A stretch of DNA of 64,000 nt, taken from Candidatus Eiseniibacteriota bacterium (GTDB lineage: Bacteria; Eisenbacteria; RBG-16-71-46; CAVPCR01). Positions 29,965 to 55,784 of the stretch are shown here, piece by piece. Both the position numbers and the translations under genes were made by a program. Within the stretch, counting starts at the first letter, position 1. Every line of letters starts with the position of its first letter. The stretch spans positions 32,001 through 96,000 of the forward strand of contig CAWGMA010000004.1 in NCBI GenBank assembly GCA_963823555.1. The letters are read 5' to 3'. The notes below the pieces were generated by a model that saw nothing but the letters and a program-made list of their open reading frames with translations, was not told the origin of the DNA and did no database searches.

Positions 29965-31518
29965 TCACCGGAACAGCATGAGCTTCGTCGCCTCGTGGAG
30001 CCCGCCGGCCTCGAGACGATAGTAGTAGATGCCCGACGGAATGCCACTGGCATCCCATTCCACCGCATGCTCTCCCGTCGCTTGCACCGCGCGGAAGACC
30101 TCGGCGACCTTGCGCCCGCTGACGTTGAAGATACTGATCCGGACTTCAGCCGTGGCGGGGAGATCATAGGAGACGATCTGGTGACGCTCCCAGGCCGAGG
30201 TCAGAGCGGCCAGCTTCAACCGTCCGCTGCCTTCGCCTCCGCCGACAATGCGAACGCAATCACTGGCCGTGAACGATTCCCCGCTCAACAGAGCGCCGCT
30301 CAGGGTCAGTTGCCTCTCGTCGTCGCGCTCGACGGGCCCGATGGCAGCGAGCAGAGCGGGTGCCGGGAACTTGAGCGTCAGATCCAGGATCCCGTCCGCC
30401 CCCGCGCCCGTGCAGTCGCACGACTCTCCACTCGTGGCGGCGCTCACGTCCTCGTAGTCCCAGCGTTCGGGAGCGACGCCCTCGAGCCTCAGGCTAGAGA
30501 CATCGATGGCATGCACGTCGAGCTCTGGTGTGCCCCGGAGCGCGGCTGGAACCACACCCTGCTGGCGTGGGTTGAGGGGATTCGGGCAAGTTCCCGGTTT
30601 GATGTCCAGCCCGTAGGCGATGGCGGGTGGCGCACCGGCCGCGACCACGACGACGGCCGTCGGCTCGTAGACGACGCTGAACTCGCTGCCGCCGCTGGCC
30701 GGCAGAATCTCGCTCGAGAAGGTACCCGTGATGGAGGGTGCGATGAGCACTTCGAATCGATCCCCGGGCCGCGGTGCGAATCCCTCGATGAGTGTGATGC
30801 GCAGGGTGCCGTTCAAGGTGGCCGGGGAATCGCTCCGTTCCACCCGGAGCTGATCGTAGCCGGTTCCCGGAGTCGTCCCGCCGATCTCGATCTCCAGGAC
30901 TCCGCTCTCGCGCTGCACGTAGCCACCCGGAGATACGGTGCCGATGGCGAGCGCGCCAGGCATTCCCGGTGCCAAGCCCGGACTCACCGTTCCCGAGTTT
31001 TCGAGAACGTGGTTCTCCATGGACCCGCCGTCGCCGCGCAGCATTCCGCCGGCCGCGAGCGCGAACCCGATGGGCCCGGTCGCCAGACACTCGATCCTGG
31101 TTCCGGGTTCGAGGATCAGGGTGCCCGCCGGGCCGATGGTCTGCATCCCGGACCCGGTGATGGCTCCGCGCTTCAGCGCGAGACTGGCGGGGGAGCCGGC
31201 CGTGCCGACACCGATCACGGCACGAAACGAGTCGTGGGTCATCAGCGTCACGTCACCGCTCGGGACGTGAATGATGCCAAGGCCCTGAATCAGGGCGGCA
31301 TCGCTGGCGTCTACTTGATAGGTTGCGGTCTGACCGAAGACGGCGATGTCGAAGAAGAACCGAGGGTAGCCGCGCGGAACCCAGTTGCTCGTGTCCTCCC
31401 ACCGGCCACCGTTCGGATTGCTCCACTGGAAGGTCGCCCCTTCCGCCGCAGCGTGAGCCAGGCTCCCGCCGACGATGACCGCGATCAGGAGCAGCAGGGG
31501 ATTTCGGTGGTTGTTCAT
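29965..31518 (-). CDS. Secreted protein: Gly-rich beta-helix-like region, 'DIKPG' domain, T9SS/FlgD-like tail
   Basis: Signal peptide; GGTTPGTGYDQL; LDIKPGTCPNP..DGILDLTLKF; FNVSGRKV..WDA..SGIYYYRL. Confidence 0.8.
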   Translation of the reverse strand: MNNHRNPLLLLIAVIVGGSLAHAAAEGATFQWSNPNGGRWEDTSNWVPRGYPRFFFDIAVFGQTATYQVDASDAALIQGLGIIHVPSGDVTLMTHDSFRAVIGVGTAGSPASLALKRGAITGSGMQTIGPAGTLILEPGTRIECLATGPIGFALAAGGMLRGDGGSMENHVLENSGTVSPGLAPGMPGALAIGTVSPGGYVQRESGVLEIEIGGTTPGTGYDQLRVERSDSPATLNGTLRITLIEGFAPRPGDRFEVLIAPSITGTFSSEILPASGGSEFSVVYEPTAVVVVAAGAPPAIAYGLDIKPGTCPNPLNPRQQGVVPAALRGTPELDVHAIDVSSLRLEGVAPERWDYEDVSAATSGESCDCTGAGADGILDLTLKFPAPALLAAIGPVERDDERQLTLSGALLSGESFTASDCVRIVGGGEGSGRLKLAALTSAWERHQIVSYDLPATAEVRISIFNVSGRKVAEVFRAVQATGEHAVEWDASGIPSGIYYYRLEAGGLHEATKLMLFR

Positions 31519-31984
31519 GGCTGCACCTTCTGCGTTTGAAGGGGGGTGCATCATCCGCAGGAGGTGGGAATCCCACCCCTGCGGCTGGTGCCCCAGGTCT
31601 TCATGGGGTGTCACGCTCCACGTGTCTCGAGGTAGCAAGGACCAGGCCACGACACCTGCATGCGGGGTGCGTTCCCCCAGCGATGAGTTAGTGAGCGATG
31701 GACTCGTCGCTTTGCTCGCGCGGAAGCTCGGCGCCCACTGCCGGCGGAACCTTTCAATCTGCCTGCTCGAGTGCCATGGCCATTGCCGCGGCGTGCAGCG
31801 CGCCCTCAGGTGGGCTCTCTAGGGTTCTCTCGAAGCCGTTGCGCGAGGTCTATCCGCACCCGTATGATCCGGGGGTTCTGGCACAATGAACCGCGTGGCC
31901 GGCCGGCGATGCACCCCCGAATCTGCGGCTGCCCCGGAAGCAAGAGCCACGGCCGGCGGCCGTTTCACTTGGAGGAGGTTTCTC

Positions 31985-33437: not shown

Positions 33438-34097
33438 ATGGACGCAGCATCCGACCGGCGCCCGCCGGACACCACATGGGAGGGGGGAGGAGGTGGCGGT
33501 GAGGGCGCGGAGCTCGTACCGCTCCTACGCTCCAGCCACATCTTTGCCTCCGTCGTTCGCGAGTTTCTCGAGCTCAAGCTCCTGCGCGAAGTAAGTCCCG
33601 CTCCGCTCTCCCTCTCCCAGTTCCATCTTCTCAAGCTCGTTTGCGACAACGGGTCGCACCAGGTCGGGGAAGTCGCCGAGTTCCTCGGCGTCAGCCCTCC
33701 TGCCGCCACCAAGAACATCGACAAGCTCGAAGCTCTCGATCTCGTTCGCCGCAGTCCATCCCGCGGCGACCGGCGGGCCACGATGCTCCATGTCGGTCCC
33801 AAGGGCCGGCGGCTGGTCGATGACTACGAGCAACTCAAGACCGCACGACTGGCTCCCATCCTCGCCGGCTTCCGTCCGGAAGAACTCGGGCAACTCGCGA
33901 CGTTGCTCGAGCGCTTCTCGGTGGCGTTGCTCGAGGCCGAGGATTCGAACGGAGTCTGTCTACGATGTGCCGCCTATGTGGAGAGCGACTGCCCCGTGAG
34001 CCGTGTGCGCGGCTTCTGTCCTTACCAGAAGGCGCGCGGCGGGCGGGTGAGTGAACTGAACCCAGAGGGAGTTGACCGACTCGAGGGGAGTTCTTGA
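33438..34097 (+). CDS. MarR-family regulator with C-terminal four-Cys extension
   Basis: LSLSQFHLL, EVAEFLGVSPPAATKNIDKLE, DRR; CLRC-x7-C-x8-C. Confidence 0.85.
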   Translation: MDAASDRRPPDTTWEGGGGGGEGAELVPLLRSSHIFASVVREFLELKLLREVSPAPLSLSQFHLLKLVCDNGSHQVGEVAEFLGVSPPAATKNIDKLEALDLVRRSPSRGDRRATMLHVGPKGRRLVDDYEQLKTARLAPILAGFRPEELGQLATLLERFSVALLEAEDSNGVCLRCAAYVESDCPVSRVRGFCPYQKARGGRVSELNPEGVDRLEGSS

Positions 34098-34438
34098 TGG
34101 TCCTTTGGCGAAAACCCCTGGATCTCGATCAGGTCAAGATCCCGCGCGGAGAGGTGCGGATCATTGCTGATCGCTGCAAGGGATGCGGATTCTGCGTCGA
34201 GTACTGCCCGAAGGATGTCCTCGTGCTGTCCGAGGAATTCAATCGGAAGGGTTACCACCCGCCACGGGTGGTCAAGAGCGGAGAATGCGTGAACTGCAAT
34301 CTCTGCGAGATGATCTGCCCGGACTTCGCCATCTTCAGCGTTTCCGCCAACGGTCCGGCGCCGGACGCGGGCGAGGCGGATCGTTCGGCGGCCGGGCCGG
34401 CGACTGCGGTGGTGCCGAGCGCGGGTGGAGCGGCCTAG
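34097..34438 (+). CDS. korD: 2-oxoacid:ferredoxin oxidoreductase delta subunit (2x[4Fe-4S])
   Basis: CKGCGFCVEYCP, CVNCNLCEMICPDFAI. Confidence 0.88.
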   Translation: MVLWRKPLDLDQVKIPRGEVRIIADRCKGCGFCVEYCPKDVLVLSEEFNRKGYHPPRVVKSGECVNCNLCEMICPDFAIFSVSANGPAPDAGEADRSAAGPATAVVPSAGGAA

Positions 34439-34470
34439 GCCAGCCTCCGCCCGGCCGAGGAGGATTCGAG

Positions 34471-35628
34471 GTGAAAGCGGATCCATTGGGTGTCCTGACC
34501 GGCGCCCACTATCTGGATGGCGATTTCGCTTGCGGCGAAGGGGCGATGGCTGCCGGGTGCCGCTTCGTCGCCGGCTATCCCATCACGCCGTCAACCGAGG
34601 TCGTCGAACGTATTGCTCGCCGCTTCCCCATGATGGGAGGCCTCTTCATCCAGATGGAGGATGAGCTCGCGAGCATGGCGGCCGTCGTCGGCGCGGCGTG
34701 GACCGGAACCAAATCGATGACCGTGACGAGCGGGCCAGGCTTCAGTCTGATGATGGAGAACATCGGGCTCGCGGCCATGATGGAGACGCCCTGTGTCGTG
34801 GTCAATGTCCAGCGTGCCGGACCTTCCACCGGTCTTCCGACCATGGTCGGCCAGGGCGACATGATGCAGGCGCGCTGGGGATCTCACGGCGATTACGAGA
34901 TCATCGCCTTGTGTCCTCGTTCTCCCCAGGAGGCATTCGATCTCACGATCGAAGCCTTCAACCTGGCGGAGACCTATCGTCTACCGGTTCTGATCATGAT
35001 GGATGAGTGCGTGGGTCACATGACGGAGAAGGTGGTGATCCCCCCCGCGGAAGAGATCGAGATCGTGCCGCGCCGCTTGACCGAGGAGCCACCGGATCGA
35101 TTCCGCCCCTACCGGGTCAACGGGAACATGATCCCCGAGTTCGCGCGGGCCGGTGATGGATTCCGTTTCCATACCACCGGACTTACTCATGACGAACGCG
35201 GCTATCCTGACATGACTGCCGAGTGCCAGGAGAAGAGTGTGCGGCGGCTCATCGACAAGGTGCGCGCCAATGCCGATCGCATCATCCGCGTCGAGGAAGA
35301 AGCGATCGAAGGGGCCGATGTGGTGGTGGTGACCTACGGCATCACCTCCCGCGTCGCTCGCATGGGAATCCAGATGGCGCGCAAGCAGGGAGTGAAGGTC
35401 GGGGCGCTCAGGCTGCTCGTGGTCTGGCCCTTCCCGGAGAAACGGATCCGGGAGCTGGCGGGGAGGGTCAAGGCGTTCGTGGTGCCCGAGATCAACTACG
35501 GACAGATCGTGCTCGAGGTGGAGCGCTGTGCTGCGGGCAAGGCGGCGGCGGTGTCCGTGACGCACGGCGGCGGCGGCGTCCATGATCCGGCCGCGATCTG
35601 CGAGGCCATAGTGAGGGCGGCGAAATGA
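34471..35628 (+). CDS. korA: 2-oxoacid:ferredoxin oxidoreductase alpha subunit
   Basis: AGYPITP, QMEDE, TSGPG, QRAGPSTG. Confidence 0.92.
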   Translation: MKADPLGVLTGAHYLDGDFACGEGAMAAGCRFVAGYPITPSTEVVERIARRFPMMGGLFIQMEDELASMAAVVGAAWTGTKSMTVTSGPGFSLMMENIGLAAMMETPCVVVNVQRAGPSTGLPTMVGQGDMMQARWGSHGDYEIIALCPRSPQEAFDLTIEAFNLAETYRLPVLIMMDECVGHMTEKVVIPPAEEIEIVPRRLTEEPPDRFRPYRVNGNMIPEFARAGDGFRFHTTGLTHDERGYPDMTAECQEKSVRRLIDKVRANADRIIRVEEEAIEGADVVVVTYGITSRVARMGIQMARKQGVKVGALRLLVVWPFPEKRIRELAGRVKAFVVPEINYGQIVLEVERCAAGKAAAVSVTHGGGGVHDPAAICEAIVRAAK

Positions 35629-36518
35629 CGACGGCTGATTCAACGACCGTTCGCGCGGAAGAGCATCCCATTGCGCCATACATCCGCATGGATCGTATGC
35701 CGCACATCTGGTGTCCGACCTGCGGGATCGGGACGGTGGTCAAGTGTTTTGCTTCTGCCCTGGAGCAGACCGGCGTCGACCTCGACAAGGTGGCGGTTGT
35801 CTCCGGGATCGGTTGCACGGGGCGCGTGGCTGGATACATGAAGCTCGACGGCTTCCACACCACCCACGGCCGGGCGATCCCCTTCGCCACCGGGCTCAAG
35901 CTGGCCCGGCCGGAGCTCAAGGTCACCGTCTTCTCCGGAGATGGCGACCTGGTGGGAATCGGCGGCAACCACTTCATCCATGCCGTGAGGCGGAACATGG
36001 ATCTGCTCGTCATCCTGGTCAACAACTTCATCTACGGGATGACAGGCGGGCAGAACGGGCCGACGACGCCGGTCACGGCGCGTTCGTCGACCATGCCTTT
36101 CGGCAACTTCGAACGGTCCTTCAACCTGCCCCATCTGGCGGCGAGCTGCGGGGCCACCTATGTCGCCCGCTGGACCTGTCTCCATGTGCGGCGGTTGACC
36201 AAGGCCTTCGCCGAGGGAATCGATCGCAAGGGGTTCCGGTTCATCGAGGTCATCACCCCGTGCTCGACTCTCTATGCGCGCCTCAACAAGCTCGGCACCG
36301 GCTTCGAGCTCATGAAGTTCTACCACGACAATGTCGAGATCCAGCACGCGGCGGATACGCGGGATGCGGACATTGGCTTCCAGGGAAAGATCCTCTGCGG
36401 GAAGTTCATCGATGAGGAGAGACCGACATTCCTCGAGATGATGCACGAGCACTACCGGAAGGTCCTGGGAGAGAAGTACGTACCGATGCCGCCCGAGGGA
36501 GGAATGCTCCGTGGATAG
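35625..36518 (+). CDS. korB: 2-oxoacid:ferredoxin oxidoreductase beta subunit (TPP-binding)
   Basis: WCPTCG, SGIGC, GDGD..NN, YGMTGGQ. Confidence 0.93.
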   Translation: MTTADSTTVRAEEHPIAPYIRMDRMPHIWCPTCGIGTVVKCFASALEQTGVDLDKVAVVSGIGCTGRVAGYMKLDGFHTTHGRAIPFATGLKLARPELKVTVFSGDGDLVGIGGNHFIHAVRRNMDLLVILVNNFIYGMTGGQNGPTTPVTARSSTMPFGNFERSFNLPHLAASCGATYVARWTCLHVRRLTKAFAEGIDRKGFRFIEVITPCSTLYARLNKLGTGFELMKFYHDNVEIQHAADTRDADIGFQGKILCGKFIDEERPTFLEMMHEHYRKVLGEKYVPMPPEGGMLRG

Positions 36519-37119
36519 GCTCGAGATGCGGATCACAGGGTTCGGCGGCCAGGGGGTCGTGCTCGCCGGCTACATCTTCGGGCGCGCCTGCGCCATCCAC
36601 GCCGACAAGCACGCCACCATGATCCAGAGCTTCGGACCCGAGGCCCGCGGATCGGCTTGCAGTGCCACCCTGGTCGTATCCGACAGTGAGGTGCTTTACC
36701 CCTACGTCCAGCGGCCGGACATCCTGATCGTGATGTCCGGTGAAGGCTATGAGAAATACGGCGCCGAGCTCAAGGATGGAGGCACGCTGATCTGCGAGCG
36801 GGACCTCGTCAAGGCGGAACCGAAGCCGGGGCTCAAGATCTTTGCCGTGCCTTCGACCCGGATCGCGGAGACGCTGGGCAGGCCGATCGTGCAGAACATC
36901 GTCATGCTGGGCTTCGCGGCCGCCGTGATCGCTGCGGTGCCGCAAGAAGCGATGATCACGGCAGTGAAGGGATCGGTCCCGGCGGGGACCGAGGACATCA
37001 ATCTCAAGGCCTTCGCTGCCGGCTGGGAGTACTTCGAAACCGAGTACGGGAGCAAGGGGCAGGCGGCGCCGGCCAGCGAAGCGGTGGGAGCGGCGCCGGC
37101 GGAATCCGGAGCGACCTAG
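36511..37119 (+). CDS. korC: 2-oxoacid:ferredoxin oxidoreductase gamma subunit
   Basis: GFGGQG, SFGPEARG, NIVMLG, NLKAF. Confidence 0.92.
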   Translation: MDRLEMRITGFGGQGVVLAGYIFGRACAIHADKHATMIQSFGPEARGSACSATLVVSDSEVLYPYVQRPDILIVMSGEGYEKYGAELKDGGTLICERDLVKAEPKPGLKIFAVPSTRIAETLGRPIVQNIVMLGFAAAVIAAVPQEAMITAVKGSVPAGTEDINLKAFAAGWEYFETEYGSKGQAAPASEAVGAAPAESGAT

Positions 37120-37152
37120 TTGCGGGAGAGCCGCAAGGTGGAGTGAAAGAGG

Positions 37153-40100
37153 ATGGGCAAGCGACGGCAGCAGCCGGTGGAAACGATCGAGCCCGCGGTG
37201 GTGGAGAGACGGGCGCTGGTGATCGGTGGTGGTATCGCCGGTATCCAGGCAGCGCTGGATCTTGCCAACGCCCGCGTGCGCGTCAGTCTGGTGGAGAAGT
37301 CGCCGTCACTGGGTGGACGCATGGCCCAGCTCGACAAGACCTTTCCCACCATGGACTGCTCGATCTGAATCCTCGGCCCCAAGGCCATGGATGCCGGTCG
37401 GCATCCGCTCATCGACGTCATCACCAATGCCGAGGTCGTCGCCGCTGAGGGCGAGCCCGGTAGCTTCCGCGTGCGCGTTCGGCAGCACCCGCGCTTTGTC
37501 CGCGAGGATCGCTGCGTGGCCTGTGGGCTTTGCGTGGACGCTTGCCCCCAGGTCGGGGGCAATGAGTTCGACGTCGGCCTGAAGGCGCGCAAGGCCATCT
37601 ACCGCCCGTTCCCGCAGTCGGTGCCTGCGGCCTACGTTATCGACCGCGAATCCTGTCTCAACAAGAAGCTCCTGGTCTGCGATCGCTGCGTTCGCTCCTG
37701 CGACGTCGACGCCATCGACTTCGACATGGCGCCGCGGGACATCGATCTCGATGTCGGTTCGATCCTGGTGGCCGTCGGGTTCCAGGAGTTCGATGCCCGG
37801 AAGCTCGGCAACTACGGCTATGGGCGCTTTCCGAATGTGGTCACGAGCCTGGAGCTCGAGCGGATGCTGAACGCCTCCGGAGTCACCCAGGGCCATGTGG
37901 TACGACCCTCCGACGGCAAGACCCCACGGCGGATCGTCTTCATCCAGTGCGTGGGCGCGCGCGGCGAGGGTGGCCGTCCCTATTGCAGCCGCTTCTGCTG
38001 CATGAATGCAGTGAAGGACTCGATGCTCATCCGCCAGCACGATCCGGAGGTGGAGGAGATCACGATCCTCTACACCGACCTCCGGGCGTTCGGGAAGGGC
38101 TTCGATGACTTCCTCCAGCGCTCGATCGATGAAGAGAGCGCTCGCTACATCCGCGGCCGCCCGTCCAAGGTCGAGCATGTTCCGGAAGGCGATCAACTCG
38201 CGGTCTTCGTCGAGGACACACTGGGCCACGAGCTCAAACGGCTCGAGTCCGATCTCGTCGTGCTCTCCGTCGCGGCCGCTCCCAATGATGGCGCCATCCA
38301 TCTCGCCCGCATCCTCGGCATCGAGACCGACGCCTACGGTTTCATCGCGCGGCGGGATCCCGCCATCTCGGCGGTCGAGACCACCCGTCGCGGCGTCTTC
38401 GTCTGCGGCAGCGCGGTCGGGCCGCAGGTGATTCCGGACTGCGTGGCGCAAGCCTCGGCGGCCGCCTCGCGGGCCGGGCTGTTCTTGACCGGCCATCGTG
38501 TCGAGGAGCAGGAGTCGAAGGTCCAACCTCTGGATCTCTCCGGTCCACCGCGCGTCGGCGTCCTCGTATGTCACTGCGGCATCAACATCGCCGGCCTCCT
38601 CGACGTCGAGGAGCTCGCACGCCACGCCGCGGCCCTTCCCGATGTGGTGGTGGCTCGGACCCAGCTCTTCGCCTGCTCGGCCACCGGCCAGGATGAGCTG
38701 GTCGAGCTCGTCCGCGAGCACGGGCTGAACCGCATCGTGGTCGCGGCGTGCACGCCGCGCACCCATGAACCCGTCTTTCGCGAGACCTGCCTCAGGATCG
38801 GCTTCAATCCCTACCTCTTCGAGATGGTGAACATCCGCGATCAGTGTTCGTGGGTCCACGCGAAGCACCCGGCCGCGGCGCAGCAGAAGGCACGTGCCCT
38901 GATCGGGATGGGGGTGGCGCGGGCCCGGCACCTCGAGCCGCTCACGACCGGGCGCGCGCCGATGACGCGGGCCGCCCTGGTGATCGGGGGCGGTATCGCC
39001 GGCATCCAGGCGGCCACGGACCTGGCCGCCCAGGGTTTTCCCACCGTGCTCGTCGAGAAGTCGAGCCGGCTGGGCGGGCGCCTGGCCGAGCCCCATCTCA
39101 AGCATCTGTATCCCAGCCTCAGGCCGGCGGCCGAGGTGCTCGCCCAGAAGCAGAAGCGCCTCGAGGAGAGCGGAGCCCGCGTCCTGCTCGAGACCGAGGT
39201 CGAGGACATCAGTGGATTCGTGGGCAGCTTCACGGCGAAGCTGCGCGGCCGGACGACCGAGGAGCTCAAGGTCGGGGCCATCATCCTCGCTTTCGGGGCC
39301 GACCTCTACGATCCGGAAGGCGAGTTCGGTCGCGGGCGCTTGCCGAACGTGATCACGAGCGAGGAGCTCGAGCGGGCCTTCTTCTCGGGCGACGGCGAGC
39401 TGACCCTCGGCGGCCGGCGGCCGCAGCACGCGAGCTTCATTCTTTGCGTGGGCTCGCGCGAGGCGCACGGGTTCACCGGCTGCTCGCGCTACTGCTGCCC
39501 GACCGCGATCAAGCAGGCCATGCAGCTCACCCGCCAGGGGATCGATACGACCGTTTTCTACCGTGACATCCGCACCATCTCCACCGGAGCGGAGGAGATG
39601 TACCGCGAGGCGCGCGGTATGGGTGTGCTCTTCGTGCGCATCCCTCCCGGTGAGAAACCCGAGGTGGTGGGGAAGGAGCGGGTCGAGGCGGTGCGCTGCT
39701 TCGACGATCTCCTCGGCCGGCGCCTCGAGGTGCCGAGCGACCTCGTGGTCCTGAGCGTCGGCATGCGGCCGCGCCGGGAGGATACGGCCCGGTTCCACGA
39801 GATGCTCAAGGCGAGCCTCGGCCTCGACGGGTTCTTCCTCGAGCGGCACCCCGAGCTGGGACCGGTGGAAACCCAGGTCGAAGGGATCCTCCTCGCCGGC
39901 ACCGTGCAGGGTCCCAAGGACATCGTCGACACGGTGGCGCAGGCCTCGGCGGCCGCGGCCAAGGCGGCCGTATTCCTGGCCTACGACCAGGTCACGCTCG
40001 ATCCGGCGGTGGCGGTGGTGGACGAGGTCCGCTGCCGCGCCTGCGGCACCTGCGTCGACATCTGCCAGTTCCAGGCGCCGGAGCTCGTCGAACTGGCGCC

Positions 40101-40257
40101 GGGGATCACGACCGCGCGCATCAACGCCTCCCTGTGCAAGGGGTGCGGAACCTGCGCCAGCTGGTGTCCTTCCGGAGCGATCACGGCCAAGCACTTCACC
40201 GATCGGCAGTTGAACGCCATGATCGATGCCTTCTTCGCCGCGGAGGTGGAGTCATGA
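37153..40257 (+). CDS. hdrA: Large tandem HdrA-family flavoprotein (about 1034 aa), probable selenoprotein (UGA codon 72 at 37366-37368)
   Basis: ORFs 37153 and 37387 are in frame across the TGA in [15 protein letters not shown]; two GGGIAG FAD motifs, YCSRFCC, ferredoxin motifs. Confidence 0.9.
37389..37406 (+). promoter_or_regulatory. Bacterial SECIS-like hairpin 1
   Basis: GGATGCC-GGTC-GGCATCC; 27 nt between the UGA and the G-starting apical loop. Confidence 0.8.
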
Positions 40258-40766
40258 CGGCGACCGCTACATCCTTCACTCCCGACATCGTCGTGTTCGC
40301 GTGCAACTGGTGTTCCTATGCCGGAGCCGACACGGCCGGCGTGTCACGCATGCAGCACGAGCCGCACTTCCGGATGATCCGGGTCATGTGCTCCGGGCGT
40401 ATCCAGCCGGCCTTCGTCCTGCGCGCCTTCGAGCGCGGAGCCGACGGTGTGATCGTCTCCGGCTGCCATTTCGGCGACTGTCACTACGTCTTCGGCAACC
40501 ATCGGGCCGTCGAGCAGTTCGAGAAGACGATGGCGATCGTGAAGCTCCTGGGCATCGATCCGGGTCGCCTGCGGCTCGAGTGGATCAGCGCGGCTGAGGG
40601 CGCGCGGTTTGCGCAGGTCGTGAACGAGTTCATCGCCCAGGTGCGGGCACTCGGGCCGAGTCCGCTCCGGCGCCGGAGGCCGGCCGGCACGGAGTCGGGA
40701 TCGGGAGATCAGGTGGCGGTGGCGCACGCGGCGGCCGGGGCGCCGGGGGTGGGATGCAATGGTTGA
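40254..40766 (+). CDS. mvhD: MvhD/FlxD-like [2Fe-2S] subunit
   Basis: [34 protein letters not shown]. Confidence 0.92.
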   Translation: MTATATSFTPDIVVFACNWCSYAGADTAGVSRMQHEPHFRMIRVMCSGRIQPAFVLRAFERGADGVIVSGCHFGDCHYVFGNHRAVEQFEKTMAIVKLLGIDPGRLRLEWISAAEGARFAQVVNEFIAQVRALGPSPLRRRRPAGTESGSGDQVAVAHAAAGAPGVGCNG

Positions 40767-41904
40767 GCTCAAGGACATCACGCGGCGGGCTCGCACCTGG
40801 GCCTGCTATGACTGCGGCAAGTGCACCGCCACCTGCCCGCTGGCGCGGGTCGGCGGCGGGCTGAGCCCCCGCCGCTCGGTGCTGGCCGCGAACCTGGGCG
40901 ACCGCTCGGCGCTCCTCGTCGATGGCAGTCTCCGTGCCTGCCTCACCTGCAGCCAGTGCGATCAGCGGTGCCCGGTCGAGGTCGACTACACGAGCATGGT
41001 GCGAGAGCTCCGTGAGTTCACTCATCACGGACCGAGCGAGCCCGACTGCCCGCATGGGGGAGCCCTGCAATCGGTCATGCGCATGATGGCCCGAGGGGGT
41101 ACCACACAGAATCGACTCGAGTGGCTGGGCGGCGATCTGGCCACCGAGCCGGCCCAGGGCGAGGTCTTCTACTGGACCGGGTGCGGCGTCTACTACGACG
41201 CGTTCTTCAAGGACCTGGGAGTCGAGGCGGTTTCCGGCCTCCGCGCCGCGGTCCGGCTCATGAACCGGCTCGGCGTCAAGCCGGTGGTGTCCGCGGAAGA
41301 GCGTTGCTGTGGTCACGATCTTCTGTGGAACGGCGATCGAGCGAGCTTCGAGCTCCTGGCCCGGCACAACACGGCGCTCGTGGCCGCAAGCGGCGCCCAG
41401 TGGCTCGTGACCTCCTGCGCGGAGTGTCTGCGCACCTGGAAGGTCGACTATGCGCCGTTCCTGAGCCGCCCCCTCAAGGTCCTGCATATCACCGAATTCG
41501 TGGCCGAGCATCTCCCCGAGCTCAAGCTCAAGCCCGACGGCGAGAAGCGGGTCACCTTCCAGGATCCCTGCCGGATGGGCCGCCACCTCGGGCTCTACGA
41601 GCCGCCGCGCCGCATTCTCCGCGAGCTGCCCGGGGTCGAGTTCAAGGAGATGCGGCGGGCCGGAGCGGCGGCCGTTTGCTGTGCGGGCGGGACCTGGTCC
41701 AACTGCGACCGGTACGCCAAGCAGGTCCAGGTCGAGCGCCTGCGCGAGGCGCGTTCGACCGGCGCTCAAGTGCTGGTGACCGCATGTCCGAAGTGCCAGA
41801 TCCACTTCCGGTGTGCGATGCGAGATCCGAAGCTCGGAGCGGAAATCGAGATCGAAGTGCGAGATGTCGCCGAGCTCGTGGCCGAGAGGCTCGAGCCGGC
41901 TTGA
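40759..41904 (+). CDS. HdrD-like Fe-S oxidoreductase (2x[4Fe-4S] plus two CCG domains)
   Basis: CYDCGKCTATCP, CLTCSQCDQRCP, RCCG, QDPC, CCAG, TACPKC. Confidence 0.85.
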   Translation: MVELKDITRRARTWACYDCGKCTATCPLARVGGGLSPRRSVLAANLGDRSALLVDGSLRACLTCSQCDQRCPVEVDYTSMVRELREFTHHGPSEPDCPHGGALQSVMRMMARGGTTQNRLEWLGGDLATEPAQGEVFYWTGCGVYYDAFFKDLGVEAVSGLRAAVRLMNRLGVKPVVSAEERCCGHDLLWNGDRASFELLARHNTALVAASGAQWLVTSCAECLRTWKVDYAPFLSRPLKVLHITEFVAEHLPELKLKPDGEKRVTFQDPCRMGRHLGLYEPPRRILRELPGVEFKEMRRAGAAAVCCAGGTWSNCDRYAKQVQVERLREARSTGAQVLVTACPKCQIHFRCAMRDPKLGAEIEIEVRDVAELVAERLEPA

Positions 41905-41932
41905 TCGATAGACCGAGAATGGAGAGGTTCTG

Positions 41933-44387
41933 ATGATCTCCAAAGCGACGAACGACGAGCCACGCATCGGGGTCTTCGTCTGCGACTGTGGCCTCAACAT
42001 CGCAGGCGCGGTGGACTGCGCGGCGGTCAGCGAGTACGCGAAGGATCTTCCCGACGTGACTTGCGTGGTCCGCAACAAGTACACCTGCGCCGACCCGGGG
42101 CAGAACGAGATCAAGGCGGCGATCCGCGAGCACCGGCTCAACCGGGTGGTGGTCGCCTCCTGCACGCCCCGGCAGCACGAGCCGACTTTCAGGCAGTGCG
42201 TGTACGAGGCCGGCCTCAACCCCTACCTCCTCGAGATGGCGAACCTACGGGAGCACTGCTCCTGGGTCCATGCCGGGGATCGGGAGGGGGCGACGCGCAA
42301 GGCGATGGACCTGGTGGCGAGCGCCGTGGCGCGCGCCCGCTTCCTCGAGCCGCAGGAGGAGATGACGGTTCCGGTCACCGAGACCGTGCTGGTCATCGGC
42401 GGCGGCGTGGCCGGGATCGAGGCGGCGCTCGAGCTGGCCGAGGCCGGGCACCGGGCGATTCTGGTGGAAAAGCAGCCGTCCATCGGTGGGATCATGGCTC
42501 AGCTCGACAAGACCTATCCCACGATGGACTGCTCTATATGAATCCTCGGGCCTAAGGCCATCGATGCCGGTCGGCATCGGAACATCGAGCTCCTCACCTA
42601 CAGCGAAGTCGAAGAGGTCTCCGGCTACATCGGGAACTTCTCGGTCAAGATCCGCAAGAAGGCGCGCTATGTGGACACCGCGCTCTGCAACGCCTGCGGC
42701 GAGTGCGCCAAGGTGTGTCCGGTGGCGAAGCCGGACGAATATCAGACCGGTCTCTCCTCGCGCCGGGCGATCTACATTCCCTTCCCGCAGGCTGTGCCGT
42801 GCTCGTACATCTTGAACATGGACGATTGCCTGGGCAACAACCCCATCGCCTGCGGCAAGTGCCTCGAGGTGTGCGACAAGAAGGCCATCAACTACGACGA
42901 TCGCGATGAGATCATCACCCGCGAGGTGGGGGCGGTCATCGTCGCAATCGGGCTCAGCGTCTACGATCCCACGGATCTCGACGAGTACGGGTACACGCGG
43001 TTCGACAATGTCATCACCTCGATGGAGTTCGAGCGCTTGATCTGTGCCGGTGGGCCGACCCTCGGCGAGTTCGTGCGTCCGAGTGACCAGGAGCGGCCGA
43101 AGCGAATCGGGTTCATCCAGTGCGTCGGATCGCGCAATCCGCGGATCGGACGTCCCTACTGCTCGAACATCTGTTGCATGAACACGATCAAGGACACGCT
43201 TCTCCTCGCGGACCACTATCCGGACACCTCGAGCTTCGTCTTCTATCAGGATATCCGCGCCTTCGGCAAGTCGTTCGAGGACATGTTCCAGCGGTCCAAG
43301 GAGGAGGGTACCCGCTACATTCGCGGCCTCCCCGGTGACATCGAGGAGGATCCTGGGACCAAGAACCTGATCATCACGGTCGAGAACACGACCTCGGGTC
43401 GCCTCGAGACGTCACGAGCTCGACATGGTGGTGCTGTCCGTGGGGGTCGGTCCGCCGGACGATCTGGCCAAGATCTCGCGCCTCTTGACGCTGTCCAAGA
43501 CCTCCGACGGTTTCCTCATGGAATCGCATCCCAAGCTGAAGCCGGTGGACGCGCCGACTCGCGGGGTGTACTTCGCAGGGTTCTGCGAGGCGCCGAAGGA
43601 CATCAAGGACTCGGTCTGCCAGGCGGGGGCGGCTGCCTCCCGGGCGGGCGCGCTGCTCAATCAGCGCCAGATCAAGATCGAGGCGATCACGAGCCGCGTG
43701 GTGGAGAACGCCTGCATGAAGTGCGGGCTCTGCGCCCAGGTCTGTCCCTACGGTGCCATTCAATGGCACAAGGGCGAGGTGGCGCATGTGATCGAGGCGG
43801 CCTGCGCCGGATGCGGAGCCTGTGGCGCGACGTGCAGCTACGGAGCGATCACCATGCGCCACTTCCGGGACGAGCAGCTCCTGGCGCAGGTGCATGCCGT
43901 CCTCGCCGACCGTCCCGAGGACAAGGTGTTCGCCTTCGCCTGCAATTGGTGCTCCTACGCCGGGGGCGACATGGCGGGAATCTCGCGCTTCCAGTATCCG
44001 ACCACCAACCGGGTCGTCCGCACCATGTGCTCGGCGCGCGTGTCGGAGGAGATGGTGCTCGAGGCCTTCCGCCACGGAGCGCCCGTGGTGCTGGTGTCGG
44101 GGTGTCATTACGCCGACTGCCACTACATCAACGCCAATCGCCAGACCGTGAAGCGCGTGCAGCGGCTATGGGATCAGCTGGAGAAGGCGGGCGTACGTCC
44201 GGAACGGCTGCAGCTCGAGTGGATCAGCGCGGCCGAGGGCCAGAAGTTCGCCCGCGTGATGCGCGATCTCGAGGAGTTGCGGAAGACCGTGACCGCCGAG
44301 GAGATCGCCCATGCCCGGGAGGCGCTCCGGCCCAAACCGAAGAAGGGTGCCGCCAAGAAGGTGGAGGTCGAGGCGGCTGCCACGTAG
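41933..44387 (+). CDS. hdrA: HdrA-MvhD fusion, probable selenoprotein (UGA codon 203 at 42539-42541); one frameshift near 43410
   Basis: [24 protein letters not shown] in frame with ORF 42671, YCSNICC, C-terminal [15 protein letters not shown]. Confidence 0.88.
42562..42579 (+). promoter_or_regulatory. Bacterial SECIS-like hairpin 2
   Basis: CGATGCC-GGTC-GGCATCG; same spacing from UGA as hairpin 1. Confidence 0.8.
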
Positions 44388-44462
44388 ACGTTGTTGACTG
44401 GCCTCGGCCGAGGGCGGAGCGCAGGGGAGAACCGGACGAGAACGACGGCCACGCTGGTGACG

Positions 44463-44603
44463 ATGCGCTGCATGATGTGCGGGCACGAGTACGAGGAGCT
44501 GGTGGAGGAGGGGGAGGACAAGGAGCGCTCGTGCCCGAAGTGCCGCTCGAACTCGATTCGTCTCTTGAAGAAGAGACGGCCGGGGAGCGGGGAGTCACAC
44601 TGA
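44463..44603 (+). CDS. Small zinc-ribbon protein (FmdB-like; start uncertain)
   Basis: CMMCGHEYE..CPKCRS; stop overlaps next ATG. Confidence 0.65.
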   Translation: MRCMMCGHEYEELVEEGEDKERSCPKCRSNSIRLLKKRRPGSGESH

Positions 44604-46044
44604 TGATCCGGACCCCAAGCAAGGAGGACGAGGTCGTCCGCGTCGACTTCGAATTCCGGCGCGAGCTCGCGCGGAAGGTCGAGGGCAACCTGGCGGCTAC
44701 TGCTACCAGTGCGGCGCCTGCGTCGGCGATTGTCCTGCCGCGCGGTACCTGGGCGCGTTCAATCCGCGGGAGATCATGCTCAAGGTGCTCTACGGCCTGG
44801 GGGAGGAGCTCCTCGAGCCCGATTCGCTGCTCTGGGCCTGTGCCAATTGCTACAACTGCCACGAGCGCTGCCCGCAACAGGTGAAGCCGGTCGAGGTGAT
44901 CATCTCGCTCAAGAACATGCTGGCCGACCGCGGGCTGGCTCCCGACCCGGTCGAGAAGATCATCCGCACCTTCGAGACCACGGGCCGCACCACGCCGATG
45001 AGCGCGGCCGTGGATCGCCAGCGGGCCGACTTCGGGCTCGAACCTCTCAAGCCGGTGCCGGTCGAGGAGATCCAGCGGTTGCTCGTCGCCGAGGACCAGG
45101 CGGCGGCCCGGTCCCCCGGTGCGACCCATGCCACACCGACGCCGCAGCCCGAGCGGGACCCGGCGCTTCGCCTTCTTTCCCGGCTGTCTGATCCCGGCCC
45201 GCCATCCAGGGATGGAGGTGGCCATCCGGGAGTCGCTCTGGCCCGGCTCGGGATCGAGATCGTCGATCTCGAGGGCACGTCGTGCTGTCCGGATCCGATC
45301 TACTTCAAGTCGAAGGACAAGATGAGCTGGCTGGCCGTGGCCGCGCGCAACCTTTGCCTGGCCGAGGACCTCGGGGTCGACATCTTCACCAACTGCTCGG
45401 GATGCACGGCGACGCTGTCCGAGTGTTGCCATCTCCTCGAGGACGAGACGTTACGCACGAAGGTCAACCAGCGCCTGGCCCGCATCGGCCGCGAGTACCT
45501 GGGGACCGGACGCGTCCGGCACGTCGTGACGCTGCTCCGGGATGTGGTGGGCTACGAGGCCATACGAGCATCCGTCGTGCGCCCGCTCACCGGACTCAGG
45601 GTCGCCATCCACTACGGATGCCATCTGCTCAAGCCGAGCCGGATCATGCAGGTGGATGATCCCGATGATCCCACGGTTCTCGAGAACCTGGTCACGGCGC
45701 TGGGGGCGACCCCGGTGCGGCATCGCAACTGGTATCTCTGTTGCGGCAAGGCTTGCCAGGCCGAGGAGATTCCGAAGAACATGATGCACGACCTTCTCGG
45801 CGCCGTGAGCGACGAGGAGGCGGATCTCCTCTGCCTCATCTGCCCGACCTGCTTCGGCCAGTTCGACCATGGACAGGTGCGGGTGGCGCAGGAGTTCGGC
45901 GCCGATTTCCACACGCCCCCCATCTACTACTTCCAGCTGCTCGCCCTGGCCCAGGGCCTGCCCTACGAGCGGCTGGGGTTCGAGCGCCAGCGGCTGAAGC
46001 CGGAAGCCATCAAGCGTTTCGCCGCGGACGTCAGCGCGGGATAG
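44603..46044 (+). CDS. HdrC-HdrB-like fusion with frameshifts at about 44695, 45160 and 45240
   Basis: CYQCGACVGDCP, CANCYNCHERCP, FFPGC, SCCP, NCSGC, HYGCH, LCCG, CPTC, PIYYFQL. Confidence 0.8.
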
Positions 46045-49748: not shown

Positions 49749-52700
49749 CTATCGCATGAGGACGGCGCTCCGTGTTGCGCTGAACGAGCCGGCATTCACG
49801 CGGTAGTAGTAGACGCCGGAGGCAAGGTCCTTGCCCAGAGCGTCCCTACCATCCCAGCTCGCCGTGTGCACACCGGCCTCCTGCCGCGCCCCGTCGACGA
49901 GAACACGCACCAGTCGGCCCGACGTGTCGTAGATCGCAAGGCGCACGGTCTCGGCCGTCGGCAGCTCGTAGCGAATGGTGGTCATGGGATTGAACGGATT
50001 CGGCCGGTTGGCGTGCAGCTGGAAGCGCTGCGGCGAGGCCGCCTGATCTTCCACCGCGGAGCCGGCGTTCACCACGAGCGTCACCGGAATGGTGAGCGAG
50101 CCCTGATCGGGGTCGTTGCTCGTGAGAATGAGATCGCAGTTGTACGTCCCCGGCGTGAGCCCGGTGGCGTCCGCGGTGATGTCGATCACCTGGCTCGACT
50201 GCGGCGGCACGGTGCCGCTCGTCGGGTTCTCGCTGAGCCACGGGCACTCGCCGAGGCGGGTGAAGAGCAGCGCCAGGTTGTTCTGGACGTAGGGTCCGTT
50301 GAAGACGACCTGGAGACCGACCGTGCCCGCTGGGTTCTCGATGCCGATCGTGGCCTCGGTGAGCGGTCCGGACATGGTCAGGTACTGGCAGAGGATGTCG
50401 CCGTCCGGCGTGAGAATCATCTGGAACGTGTACGGTGCGCTCCCGCCGAAGTGCTGGATGTTGGTGAACTGGACGATGAACCGATTGCCGACGGCATCGT
50501 GGTAACGATGGATGGTGCCGCCGAGCGCAGGGTTGAGATCGTCCCAGAACCCGGCGATCAGGTCGTTCGGGGCCCCGGAGTTCGGGATCCCGGAGTTGGT
50601 GTAGACGCCGCCGCTCGTCCCGAACGTCATGTAGCCGTTCGCGCTCAGCAGCACCGAGGTCTTGTTCTGCCCGTAGAACGGGAAGGTGAAGGGGAGCGGG
50701 ATCGAGATCGACCCGTCATCCGTCAGGGTGATCGCCGTGCCGACCCCCGTGATGTCCTGCCAGTCGAAGACGGGACCACCCGGATCGTTCGAATCGATCC
50801 ACACGTACCCGAAGGCGTCGGGGCCGCCGAAGTCGCTGGCGGTCGGCGGGCCGAGACGCGGATCGGCCTCGCCCTTGGCCAGGTCGAGATCCGGGTAGGA
50901 GGTCCCACCCTGGGCCGCGACGACGACCGAGTTCCCGTTCGTGAACGGCAGGGGCTCGATGTCGGTGATGCTCCAGGTCAGGTCAGCCCCGAACAAGGGA
51001 TCGGTCTGGTTCTCGATCGTGAGCTGCTGGGTCGATGTGCCGTTGGGCGGCAGGCTGAAGTTGAAGACGAGGGGCGCCGCCACGATATTGGCCGGGGTGC
51101 CGACCGAGTAGCCGGTCTGCTGGAAGTTCGAGACCATGGCGCTCAGCTCGCTCTGCGAGTAGTTGAGCGCGATGGCCGCCTGCAGCATGGCGTTGGCGGC
51201 GTCGTTCTGGCTCGAGGAGGAATTGGTCATGCCGAGACCGGCGAGGCAGGCCTTGTCGGTCTTCTCGCGGCCGATGGCATCCCAGATCCGCATGAGGCAG
51301 GTCGACCAGATCTGGCCATCGGTGTGGATCTGGCCCACGAGCCCGCCGGGATAGGTCGCCCCGTAGTTGGTGACGCGACCCGCCCAGAACGGATTGTGGC
51401 CGTCCCAGCTGAACACGTAATGGTAGGCCGGCTGGTTGGGCAGCCACTGGCCGAGGCTCCGGCTGTAGGATGCGGCGATGTAGTCGCCGAAGCCCTCGCT
51501 GAGCCCGTTCACCTGTGACAGGCTGCCGTTGGTCACCCAGTCGTGGAGGCCGTGGCCCAGTTCGTGGATCACGACATCGGCATCCTCGGAGTCGTCGACG
51601 CCGCCCTCGCCGAAGGCGACGCGACCCGTGCTACCGATGTAGTGCGAGTTGTCGGCCCCGCTCAGACCATGGGGGTCGAACTGCACGCCGCCCGGATACT
51701 GGAAGGGGTGGATGTTGAGGCCGAGGGTGATGTTCACCCAGCGCATGATGTTGTCGATGTGCCAGTAGACGAGCGCCGCCTCGAAGGCGTTGTCGAAGCG
51801 GTTGTAGTTCCAGGTCGGACTGGCCTCCGAGAAGAGCCCGTAGAAGGGCGACTCGAAGTCGATGATCTCCGCCCACGGTCCCTTGAGGGTGTAGGTGCCG
51901 GCGTTGAGCGTGATGTCACGGAGAACGGCGTTGACGAGCTCCGCCTGAAGCTGTGGCGTGTTCGCGTCGTTGCCATCGACGTAACCGGGATCGCCGTAGG
52001 TGGCGCCGGCCGAGGACAGCGGATCGGGATCGAAGATGTTGCCGGCGCCGTCTACGTAGTGGGCGTTGTCGACCGCCTTCAGGATCTCGCCGGTCGACGC
52101 ATCGGCGATGATCTCCCAGTCGCCGACGGGAGAAGTGCTCGGGACGAGGGCCACCCGGTAAGCCAGCCGCCACTCGCCAGCCGTCGGATAGAGAACGAGC
52201 CTGGTCTCCTCGTGGTCGACCGCGCCGCTCACCTGGAGGTGGTTCCGGGCGCGGGTCCGCGCCTCCTCGGCGCTCAGTGCCGGCGCGCCCATCGTGGCCG
52301 GCACCCCGGGCTTGTAACCGTTGGCGACGAAGATCACGCGGTTCTGATGGTCGATCGTGATCGCGATCTCGCCCTTGTAGACCGGCACGCCGCTGACCTC
52401 TTGGTCGAAGCGAACGGTGTGGCCCAGCGGGCTCGCCCAGGTGTGACGGTGAGCGAGATCGGAGAGATCCTCGTGCCGGAGATGGAGCAGCTCGCGATGG
52501 TCGCTGAGGTACTGGCGGGCCATGGTCTCCGGGTCGGCCGGCGCGAGCTCCACGCTGGGTCCGTAGATGGCGAGCGGCACGCCGGTCAGCCTGCTGATTC
52601 GCATACCGTCCCTCTCGAACGAGGGCTCCTCACTCTCCTCGGCACCGATCGTGGTGACCGCTGCCGGCGTGGGCGGGGTCTTGGCCGAAGCGATCGGAGC

Positions 52701-52778
52701 CATCGCTGCCCAGAGCACCAGAGTCAGGGCGACGACAGCGCCAGCAGTTGCAGATCTCGATTCCCATCGTGTCGACAT
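49749..52778 (-). CDS. Secreted M36/M4-like metallopeptidase with FTP/PepSY propeptide and FlgD-Ig tail
   Basis: VRFDQ..GVPV, IADASTGEIL, HELGH, GLSEGFGD, GGPDAFGY; PNPFNP..YDTSGRLV..WDG..SGVYYYR. Confidence 0.88.
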   Translation of the reverse strand: MSTRWESRSATAGAVVALTLVLWAAMAPIASAKTPPTPAAVTTIGAEESEEPSFERDGMRISRLTGVPLAIYGPSVELAPADPETMARQYLSDHRELLHLRHEDLSDLAHRHTWASPLGHTVRFDQEVSGVPVYKGEIAITIDHQNRVIFVANGYKPGVPATMGAPALSAEEARTRARNHLQVSGAVDHEETRLVLYPTAGEWRLAYRVALVPSTSPVGDWEIIADASTGEILKAVDNAHYVDGAGNIFDPDPLSSAGATYGDPGYVDGNDANTPQLQAELVNAVLRDITLNAGTYTLKGPWAEIIDFESPFYGLFSEASPTWNYNRFDNAFEAALVYWHIDNIMRWVNITLGLNIHPFQYPGGVQFDPHGLSGADNSHYIGSTGRVAFGEGGVDDSEDADVVIHELGHGLHDWVTNGSLSQVNGLSEGFGDYIAASYSRSLGQWLPNQPAYHYVFSWDGHNPFWAGRVTNYGATYPGGLVGQIHTDGQIWSTCLMRIWDAIGREKTDKACLAGLGMTNSSSSQNDAANAMLQAAIALNYSQSELSAMVSNFQQTGYSVGTPANIVAAPLVFNFSLPPNGTSTQQLTIENQTDPLFGADLTWSITDIEPLPFTNGNSVVVAAQGGTSYPDLDLAKGEADPRLGPPTASDFGGPDAFGYVWIDSNDPGGPVFDWQDITGVGTAITLTDDGSISIPLPFTFPFYGQNKTSVLLSANGYMTFGTSGGVYTNSGIPNSGAPNDLIAGFWDDLNPALGGTIHRYHDAVGNRFIVQFTNIQHFGGSAPYTFQMILTPDGDILCQYLTMSGPLTEATIGIENPAGTVGLQVVFNGPYVQNNLALLFTRLGECPWLSENPTSGTVPPQSSQVIDITADATGLTPGTYNCDLILTSNDPDQGSLTIPVTLVVNAGSAVEDQAASPQRFQLHANRPNPFNPMTTIRYELPTAETVRLAIYDTSGRLVRVLVDGARQEAGVHTASWDGRDALGKDLASGVYYYRVNAGSFSATRSAVLMR

Positions 52779-52865
52779 CAACGAATTTCCTCGGGTCTTG
52801 GGGTGAGCGGGGTGGACGCGGGACCGGGATCGCCGCGCCGGGATCATGGGGCAAGTAACTATTTA

Positions 52866-52894
52866 TTAGACAACATCTTGGCGGCGTCTGTCAA
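52866..52894 (-). promoter_or_regulatory. Candidate sigma-70 promoter for the M36 gene
   Basis: TTGACA (52894-52889) followed about 18 nt later by AT-rich TCTAATAAAT. Confidence 0.5.
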
Positions 52895-52929
52895 GTTCGG
52901 AATGGGAGCCAGGGCAACCCCTCGCGCCG

Positions 52930-55674: not shown

Positions 55675-55746
55675 CGGACTCCTCCAGGCAAGACGTGTCA
55701 CCACGATAATGGTAGCACGAGCCCTGGCAGAGCGATGCATGAAGTG

Positions 55747-55784
55747 GCGGAGCCCGGAAGGTGAATTCACCCTCCGGGCTCCGC
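55747..55784. terminator. Near-perfect 38-bp palindrome, probable terminator of the gene at 55855-56601
   Basis: GCGGAGCCCGGAAGGTGAA/TTCACCCTCCGGGCTCCGC. Confidence 0.55.

Follow-up and report, generated by a model that had tools for sequence, protein, structure and literature searches.

Tandem hdrA genes with in-frame UGA codons, very likely read as selenocysteine, in a probable Eisenbacteria lineage

Known selenocysteine-containing HdrA systems

HdrA proteins with selenocysteine (Sec) and tandem hdrA genes have been described in bacteria since 2006 (PMC1794560). The available part of that paper lists seven Sec-HdrA genes and hdrA-hdrA tandems for Syntrophobacter, and Sec-HdrA operons of the order glpC-hdrA-frhD-frhG-frhA as well as hdrA-hdrA tandems for Syntrophobacter, Syntrophus, Desulfotalea, Moorella and others; HdrA/HdrL are known from Desulfobacterium autotrophicum (PMC2702500). 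For Methanococcales, the available sections of PMC13518236 describe the complex of M. maripaludis (PDB 9SFI), where Sec197 is part of a Cys-Sec feature that lies between FAD and cluster A3.

We analysed a 64,000-nucleotide stretch of DNA (the window) with two hdrA genes in one cluster, each with an in-frame UGA (TGA in the DNA) inside the identical motif PTMDCSI-TGA-ILGPK:

37153..40257, + strand: hdrA1, 1034 aa including U72, open throughout; fused HdrA-HdrA
37366..37368, + strand: in-frame UGA 1 (U72), at the Cys197/Sec197 column
41933..44387, + strand: hdrA2, an HdrA-MvhD fusion in two frames
42539..42541, + strand: in-frame UGA 2 (U203), aligned with residue 197 of PDB 5ODC and 9SFI; the preceding codon is the rare AUA

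The Methanococcales Sec-HdrA (M. maripaludis, PDB 9SFI/9T1S; available part of PMC13518236) has the same CxxU at the same column 197, and hdrA2 shares its domain order. In contrast to that system, the predicted SECIS element here is of the bacterial type and sits within the gene, immediately 3' of the UGA, hdrA2 carries a fused MvhD, and the cluster contains no hydrogenase or formate dehydrogenase gene. As in Syntrophobacter-type operons and D. autotrophicum, there are several Sec-HdrA copies, tandem hdrA genes, and adjoining mvhD/frhD and glpC/hdrD; unlike in these systems, MvhD and HdrD keep Cys, 2-oxoacid:ferredoxin oxidoreductase neighbors take the place of hydrogenase, and the host is probably of Eisenbacteria. 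Known two-module HdrA proteins have one module with residue 197 and no N-terminal domain, and another with the reverse, a division that hdrA1 shares, although its modules stand in the reverse order, with the residue-197 module in front, and residue 197 is predicted to be Sec. The HdrA2 family (HdrA-MvhD fusion, NF040770) is covered by our hdrA2 gene over positions 1-476 and 480-775 of 777, with the differences of a predicted Sec at 197, a probable assembly frameshift and a non-methanogen host.

Gene content and domain architecture

The hdrA genes are embedded in the following neighborhood:

34097..37119, + strand: 2-oxoacid:ferredoxin oxidoreductase (kor) genes for ferredoxin (delta-like), alpha, beta and gamma, directly upstream of and conserved with the hdr genes
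40254..40766, + strand: mvhD, Cys form (CNWC; PF02662, 173.5 bits)
40759..41904, + strand: HdrD/GlpC-type Fe-S protein (4Fe-4S dicluster and two CCG domains), with no in-frame UGA
44427..44603, + strand: small zinc-ribbon protein whose start is not fixed (PF09723 below cut-off), present in 7 of 7 loci compared
44602..46044, + strand: hdrC and hdrB, frame-broken in the assembly

The conserved gene order is kor genes, hdrA1, mvhD, hdrD, hdrA2-mvhD, hdrC and hdrB, so that the partners of an HdrABC complex (hdrB and hdrC, both frame-broken) and an MvhD module are encoded together with hdrA. Both MvhD modules are of the Cys type (CNWC with Cys codons), as the initial annotation had stated. The same tandem cluster was found in two loci of other lineages, and partly in a third.

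In hdrA1, the first module carries the CxxU and an inserted ferredoxin but lacks the N-terminal Fe-S domain; after it come an internal domain of the N-terminal type (CHCGINI), a second module without the CxxC, and a C-terminal ferredoxin. The features of the HdrA superfamily are present, i.e., a FAD/thioredoxin-reductase module with the cluster motif (which we take to be CX10-16(Y/W/H)CSX2-3CC), an N-terminal Fe-S domain and ferredoxin domains, and the Glu356 and Lys409 of 5ODC, presumably residues with a role in bifurcation, are conserved in hdrA2. The best NCBIfam matches are NF040770/NF041778/NF041891; at a cut-off of 1100 bits, hdrA1 scores 1049, and hdrA2, scored as two pieces as assembled, 724 and 395.

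UGA codons at the Cys197 column

An alignment of the HdrA translation with 5ODC (E-value 5.7e-186) places U203 of hdrA2 opposite C197 of 5ODC and X197 of 9SFI, and among five solved HdrA sequences this column holds Cys in four and X in one, so the pairing of UGA with Cys at the CxxU position holds as proposed. The Sec motif was found in 25 of the 206 genomes of the phylum, and its reversed pattern (the chance control) had no match in the same 206, which excludes a chance origin. UGA also occupies this column in other genomes from many phyla (at least 120 stretches), and in all 112 distinct metagenome matches to a pattern permitting Cys or UGA, though these genes are kin and counts across relatives overstate independence. 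The Cys version of the motif occurs at the same column in 33 of the 206 genomes; this same genome has it in a third HdrA.

Public gene calls break both genes at the UGA, as had been expected: the 956-aa piece after UGA 1 and the 202-aa piece before UGA 2 have exact matches in the protein collection. A contig of another sequencing run spans 42505-42565, and thus UGA 2, with no difference; it is not a full bridge, since the shorter side measures only 24 bases. Among the contig pieces examined, all short and from mixed communities, none extended 31 bases to both sides of UGA 1 or UGA 2.

Predicted SECIS hairpins

A putative bacterial SECIS hairpin follows each UGA:

37389..37406, + strand: predicted bacterial SECIS 1, 7-bp stem, GGUC loop, -11.5 kcal/mol
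42562..42579, + strand: predicted bacterial SECIS 2, 7-bp stem, GGUC loop, -10.6 kcal/mol

In both, the 4-nt loop begins 27 nt after the UGA, and both lie within all four limits of a published bSECIS model (loop of 3-9 nt with G in the first two places, stem of 4-16 bp, 16-37 nt after the UGA, MFE at or below -7.5; PMC13188914). Of the phylum genes retrieved, 36 of 37 with UGA and 0 of 30 with Cys have a 6-bp stem with a GG loop, as do 111 of 112 metagenome UGA genes, in which one stem pair covaries (C-G, U-A and U-G in 51, 51 and 10). When the same two peptides were recoded synonymously, 5000 trials yielded this stem and loop just 8 and 18 times; the control has an element of circularity, as the observed sequence had served to define the stem. 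By plain folding energy the hairpins do not stand out (451 and 248 of the 5000 recodings fold equally well).

These data bear on the reading of the UGAs as true stops or sequencing errors, with the genes split or pseudogenes. Public gene calls do end or start at the UGAs, and further assembly errors lie nearby (43408, 44694 and 45097-45246). Against this stand the recurrence of UGA at the same column across the phylum (25 of 206), the other stretches (at least 120) and the metagenomes (112 of 112), the hairpin tied to UGA, and the unchanged contig over UGA 2 (24 bases on its shorter side); we consider stops or errors largely refuted and highly improbable.

Selenocysteine machinery of the genome

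All four components that the initial annotation proposed to look for are present above their cut-offs: SelA (463 bits), SelB (331 bits over the cut-off, with the SelB wing domain in the same frame), tRNA-Sec (selC; UCA anticodon, 68.8 bits vs 47) and SelD (370 bits), which has a CxxU UGA of its own. Other in-frame UGAs with a family match fall in SelD, a molybdopterin oxidoreductase and three thioredoxin/AhpC-like proteins. A genome-wide UGA screen kept 85 of 43,686 candidates after a rough coding filter; it did not recover hdrA2 and does not amount to a complete selenoproteome, and one of five tested candidates had no Pfam match.

A genome-wide reassignment of UGA (to Trp or Gly), or its reading as Cys, would require no selenium. 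Cys would suit the column equally and nothing else was found in its favor, whereas hdrA1 itself terminates at a UGA overlapping the mvhD start, the Sec-type tRNA is the only one with a UCA anticodon (default settings), and the other family-matched UGAs belong to known selenoprotein families. We regard reassignment as the least credible of the alternatives, with hardly any chance of being correct.

Given real UGAs at the Cys197/Sec197 column, the hairpins and selA/selB/selC/selD, both hdrA1 and hdrA2 are very likely selenoproteins, which bears out the original call. Judged from sequence, the UGA at this conserved column is very likely decoded as Sec via SelB and SECIS in both genes, so that a predicted Hdr-type complex with electron bifurcation would contain two flavoproteins with CxxU. 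The recoding call is thus right but ordinary, as such recoding is long known in the HdrA family and common across anaerobic bacteria.

An extra base in hdrA2

The frame was said to continue cleanly after both UGAs. This is so for hdrA1, open for all 1034 residues; in hdrA2 a +1 frameshift had been overlooked, and the gene as assembled is not a clean read-through:

43408..43410, + strand: extra base breaking the hdrA2 frame, a probable assembly error

After U203 the HdrA frame holds only to residue ~492, and the C-terminal ferredoxin and MvhD, 324 residues in all, lie in another frame. The break is present in the assembled sequence, as expected if hdrA2 were a real, recent pseudogene of this strain and hdrA1 alone a selenoprotein. 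However, a contig of another run (43316-43467), otherwise identical over 151 bases with no substitutions, does not have the base at 43408, all 16 hdrA2 orthologues are open across the break, and a relative from the 90% cluster also reads through. Similar changes affect hdrC/hdrB (a base missing near 44694 and further indels at 45097-45246), and since a near-identical contig of another run does not have these one-base indels, they point to assembly noise. A strain-specific pseudogene is therefore improbable, and the extra base at ~43408 is most likely an assembly error, as judged from the orthologues and a single contig (depth 2.3) of another run.

Host lineage and distribution

Seven of the eight organism-named sequences among the best 120 matches of rpsC (ribosomal protein S3) are from Ca. 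Eisenbacteria/Eiseniibacteriota (74-77% identity), so by this one marker the host probably belongs to Eisenbacteria, in line with the first assignment. A pair of Sec-HdrA paralogues was thought to be unusual for such a lineage, which it is not: in ten other genomes of the phylum (206 searched) the two Sec motifs lie on a single contig at a distance of 5-7 kb, an eleventh also has a tandem pair, and 39 of 41 genomes from the class have a SelA above the cut-off.

A search of the freely accessible literature returned no paper joining 'Eisenbacteria' and 'selenocysteine', and none that, by its title, deals with the kor-hdr cluster. The available part of PMC5029168 names no Eisenbacteria, nor does the part of the BSepDB supplement at hand (PMC13326102; 64,762 genomes screened), and both proteins may already be in BSepDB. 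The significance is mainly one of annotation: since public collections contain both HdrA proteins in truncated form, two full HdrA subunits are missing from pathway reconstructions of the lineage. A probable Eisenbacteria lineage is also added to the Sec-HdrA hosts.

Predicted function

By the proposed mechanism, SelB-GTP-Sec-tRNA would bind the GGUC hairpin 27 nt downstream of the UGA and insert Sec. If methanogen HdrA is a guide, the Cys-x-x-Sec pair may either ligate the N-terminal-domain Fe-S cluster of a partner HdrA module or act as a selenylsulfide relay from FAD to the cluster. For HdrA1, the domain content suggests that module 2 of the same chain would serve as partner (domain kept, CxxC lost); HdrA2-MvhD would dimerize in the usual way. 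Most likely, the operon would couple ferredoxin reduced by 2-oxoacid oxidation to disulfide reduction on HdrB/HdrD, with donor and acceptor suggested by gene order. The role of Cys-Sec197 is posed as an open question in the available part of PMC13518236, and a single-chain HdrA-HdrA with one Sec and a bacterial in-frame SECIS might serve well for studying it.

AUA codon before the UGA

In hdrA2-type genes, the codon in front of the UGA is AUA in 96 of 112 metagenome and 22 of 22 phylum sequences, as compared to an AUA share of 10% and 8%, respectively, among the other Ile codons of the same genes. No structure explaining the AUA was found in the consensus fold of 134 hdrA2-type stretches, which, apart from the SECIS stem, shows no more than a 2-bp pairing upstream, and the available part of PMC4513850 has nothing on the codon preceding UGA. 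We also considered a restart at the AUG within AUA-UGA and rejected it: in this genome the frame that starts there closes after just five codons, and 4 of 7 relatives lack the stop that closes it.

A more speculative proposal, which we think rather unlikely to hold in full, is that the operon encodes an undescribed hydrogenase-free, 2-oxoacid-driven bifurcating complex with two different Sec-HdrA proteins, spread in Eisenbacteria and other sediment lineages, and that the AUA kept before the UGA in the hdrA2 subfamily would be a second, upstream signal tuning Sec insertion vs termination. Among KTFP-type genes of the phylum (the hdrA1 type), AUA precedes the UGA in 2 of 14.

UGA codons in the two hdrA genes

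The initial annotation placed a TGA within the motif PTMDCSI-TGA-ILGPK of two hdrA genes and read it as selenocysteine (Sec), and the sequence contains these codons at 37366-37368 and 42539-42541. The features concerned are as follows.

34097-46044, + strand: operon, kor(DABG)-hdrA-mvhD-hdrD-hdrA2/mvhD-zinc ribbon-hdrCB (kor, 2-oxoacid:ferredoxin oxidoreductase genes)
37153-40257, + strand: hdrA1, fused HdrA-HdrA, 1034 residues, UGA at residue 72
Start at 41933, + strand: hdrA2, HdrA-MvhD fusion, UGA at residue 203

The frame was said to continue cleanly past both codons; this holds for hdrA1, which is open over its 1034 residues, and fails for hdrA2, which is broken after residue ~492. Gene callers do split both genes, as public protein pieces end or begin at both UGAs: 7 of the 8 window proteins looked up match entries of the public protein collection, including pieces of 956 aa behind the hdrA1 UGA, 202 aa before the hdrA2 UGA and 320 aa behind the frameshift. 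The Sec-bearing modules of HdrA1 and HdrA2 share 49% identity and are thus old paralogues. Judged from sequence, the UGA in both genes is very likely a Sec codon, and we consider the selenoprotein call correct, one probable assembly frameshift aside.

Selenocysteine machinery and predicted SECIS hairpins

A search of the source genome (4.62 Mb in 4 contigs, C1-C4; 92.5% complete) found selA, selB, selC and selD. The tRNA-Sec at C1:1192084 has a UCA anticodon and scores 68.8 bits (cut-off 47); the protein matches are 463 bits for SelA, 331 bits for SelB (whose wing domain is encoded in frame) and 370 bits for SelD, which has its own in-frame UGA in CAGU. Using a crude genome-wide screen for further in-frame UGA candidates, we found that four of the five tested match molybdopterin oxidoreductase or thioredoxin/AhpC-like families. 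Candidates with downstream hairpins lie at C1:1638085+, C1:1632372+, C2:139022+, C2:668598-, C3:333396+ and C4:476853-, and comprise SelD, a molybdopterin protein resembling formate dehydrogenase, three UxxC proteins of thioredoxin/AhpC-like type and, at C2:139022, a UxxC protein for which Pfam gave no match.

In both hdrA genes a hairpin is predicted downstream of the UGA, with a stem of 7 bp and a GGUC loop beginning 27 nt past that codon (-11.5 kcal/mol in hdrA1, -10.6 kcal/mol in hdrA2), and both hairpins agree with all four bacterial SECIS criteria as laid out in an excerpt of PMC13188914. Among the genes retrieved from the phylum, 36 of 37 distinct ones with UGA and 0 of 30 with Cys have the core of this hairpin (6 bp, GG loop). 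It is also present in 111/112 metagenome UGA genes; pair 29-36 varies among them between C-G (51), U-A (51) and U-G (10). The genes behind these counts are kin, hence the counts are not independent. GGUC occurs at the same place in only 57 of 131 UGA rows of a wider named set, with another hairpin, shifted upstream by a few bases, in most of the rest. Of 5000 synonymous recodings, 8 and 18 recreate the stem-loop and 451 and 248 fold with equal energy; this control is partly circular.

The Sec UGA of hdrA2 is directly preceded by a rare AUA (42536-42538), a codon that encodes 322 of the 25,708 isoleucines in the long ORFs of the source genome. AUA takes this position in 96/112 metagenome hdrA2-type genes (197/2014 at other Ile codons of the same genes), 22/22 phylum hdrA2-type genes (40/488 at other Ile codons) and 6/6 named ones, as compared to only 2/14 phylum genes of the KTFP (hdrA1) type. 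The Ile codon after the UGA is likewise shifted from AUC (19/112). We found no Cys-form control for the hdrA2 subfamily, and some of the AUA signal may stem from shared ancestry.

Frame breaks in hdrA2, hdrC and hdrB

One extra base at 43408-43410 moves the C-terminal ferredoxin domain and the fused MvhD of hdrA2 into another frame. A contig from sequencing run X3 that spans 43316-43467 has 0 substitutions and one base fewer at 43408 (depth 2.3), a relative's protein in the same 90% cluster (P0009) reads through this region, and none of the 16 orthologous hdrA2 genes examined has its frame interrupted between the UGA and MvhD. These comparisons point to an assembly error as the likely source of the extra base, a strain-level mutation being less likely. 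In the window hdrC and hdrB (44602-46044) are also frame-broken by several one-base indels, and near-identical contigs from run X1 differ from it by one-base indels at 44694 and 45097-45237, which calls for caution with other frameshift-based findings in this assembly.

The Cys197/Sec197 column

Alignment to HdrA homologues, proposed with the initial annotation, recovered the UGA/Cys pairing: HdrA2 residue 203 falls on column 197, which is Cys in PDB 5ODC, X in 9SFI (the Hdr-Vhu-Fwd model from M. maripaludis) and Cys again in the remaining three HdrA sequences of known structure. Excerpts of PMC13518236 place the Cys-Sec197 feature of M. maripaludis HdrA between FAD and cluster A3 and assign it no settled role; in the portion of PMC9012536 consulted, Cys197 acts as a ligand for the N-terminal cluster of the HdrA it partners with, and fused HdrA pairs are described in which one half has lost Cys197 and the other half the N-terminal domain. 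HdrA1 has the same complementarity with the modules in reverse order: the CxxU lies in module 1, which lacks the N-terminal domain; module 2 comes after an internal CHCG domain and is without CxxC. This layout is kept in 8/8 orthologues.

A third, long HdrA of the source genome (C3:130500-136500) has Cys at column 197 and an internal insert resembling an NAD(P)H-binding module (HdrL-like by eye); its neighbors are hdrB-like, mvhD and mvhG-like genes.

Distribution of Sec-HdrA

By ribosomal protein S3, a single marker, the source lineage is probably Ca. Eisenbacteria/Eiseniibacteriota: of the eight matches bearing an organism name within the best 120, seven belong there (74-77% identity) and the eighth is 'Latescibacteria bacterium DG_63'. 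Two Sec-HdrA paralogues had been thought unusual for this lineage, which the phylum contradicts: Sec is common, and the tandem pair occurs in 11 other genomes (ten with two Sec motifs 5-7 kb apart on a single contig, and G015). Judged by SelA alone, which is above cut-off in 39 of the 41 class genomes, Sec use looks nearly class-wide. The Sec-HdrA motif is found in 25 and its Cys form in 33 of the 206 phylum genomes (a reversed-pattern control gave 0 matches); a search of the four closest relatives (81-99% complete) found no Sec motif, making its spread patchy. In a scan of species genomes, it occurs in at least 120 stretches; among the matches listed, most are Desulfobacterota by record title, others being Chloroflexota, Bacillota, Planctomycetota, Holophagae, Krumholzibacteriota, KSB1, WOR-3, Glassbacteria and Spirochaetota. 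One locus titled Bathyarchaeota (L052) has the motif, followed by the hairpin found in many Desulfobacterota genes, through either misbinning or transfer.

Excerpts of earlier papers report 16 bacterial Sec-HdrA genes (7 from Syntrophobacter fumaroxidans) and hdrA-hdrA tandems (PMC1794560), Sec in hdrA1, hdrA2, hdrL1 and hdrL3 of Desulfobacterium autotrophicum (PMC2702500), and HdrA as a standard selenoprotein family (PMC13188914). Our literature search found no paper containing both 'Eisenbacteria' and 'selenocysteine', and both genes may already be listed in BSepDB. The pair is one more case of a long-established recoding, and Sec use is common in its lineage.

The kor-hdr operon

The gene order is marR, kor ferredoxin/alpha/beta/gamma, hdrA1, mvhD, hdrD/glpC, hdrA2-mvhD, zinc ribbon, hdrC and hdrB. 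The order from kor alpha to hdrB is kept in all six phylum loci fetched (five picked for the tandem motif, plus G015), and that from kor to hdrA2 in locus L078; three or four genomes of the family-level group f12 have kor-mvhD-hdrD-hdrA2 without hdrA1 between. Parts of the operon recur in records labelled Planctomycetota, Holophagae, Krumholzibacteriota and KSB1. The MvhD modules in the window keep Cys, as first noted; TGA is found in 15/71 MvhD motif matches of the loci collected, with none among the matches listed for these clusters. No hydrogenase gene was seen among the cluster ORFs scanned, and a literature search returned no description of a kor-hdr operon without one. From gene order alone we infer a bifurcating or confurcating complex driven by 2-oxoacid oxidation, which would feed it through ferredoxin; the complex would pass electrons to a disulfide acceptor.

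Elsewhere in the window, 49749-55770 (minus strand) and 29965-31650 encode large proteins of secreted type whose C-terminal domain is FlgD-Ig, including an M36-like metallopeptidase and an S8 subtilase.
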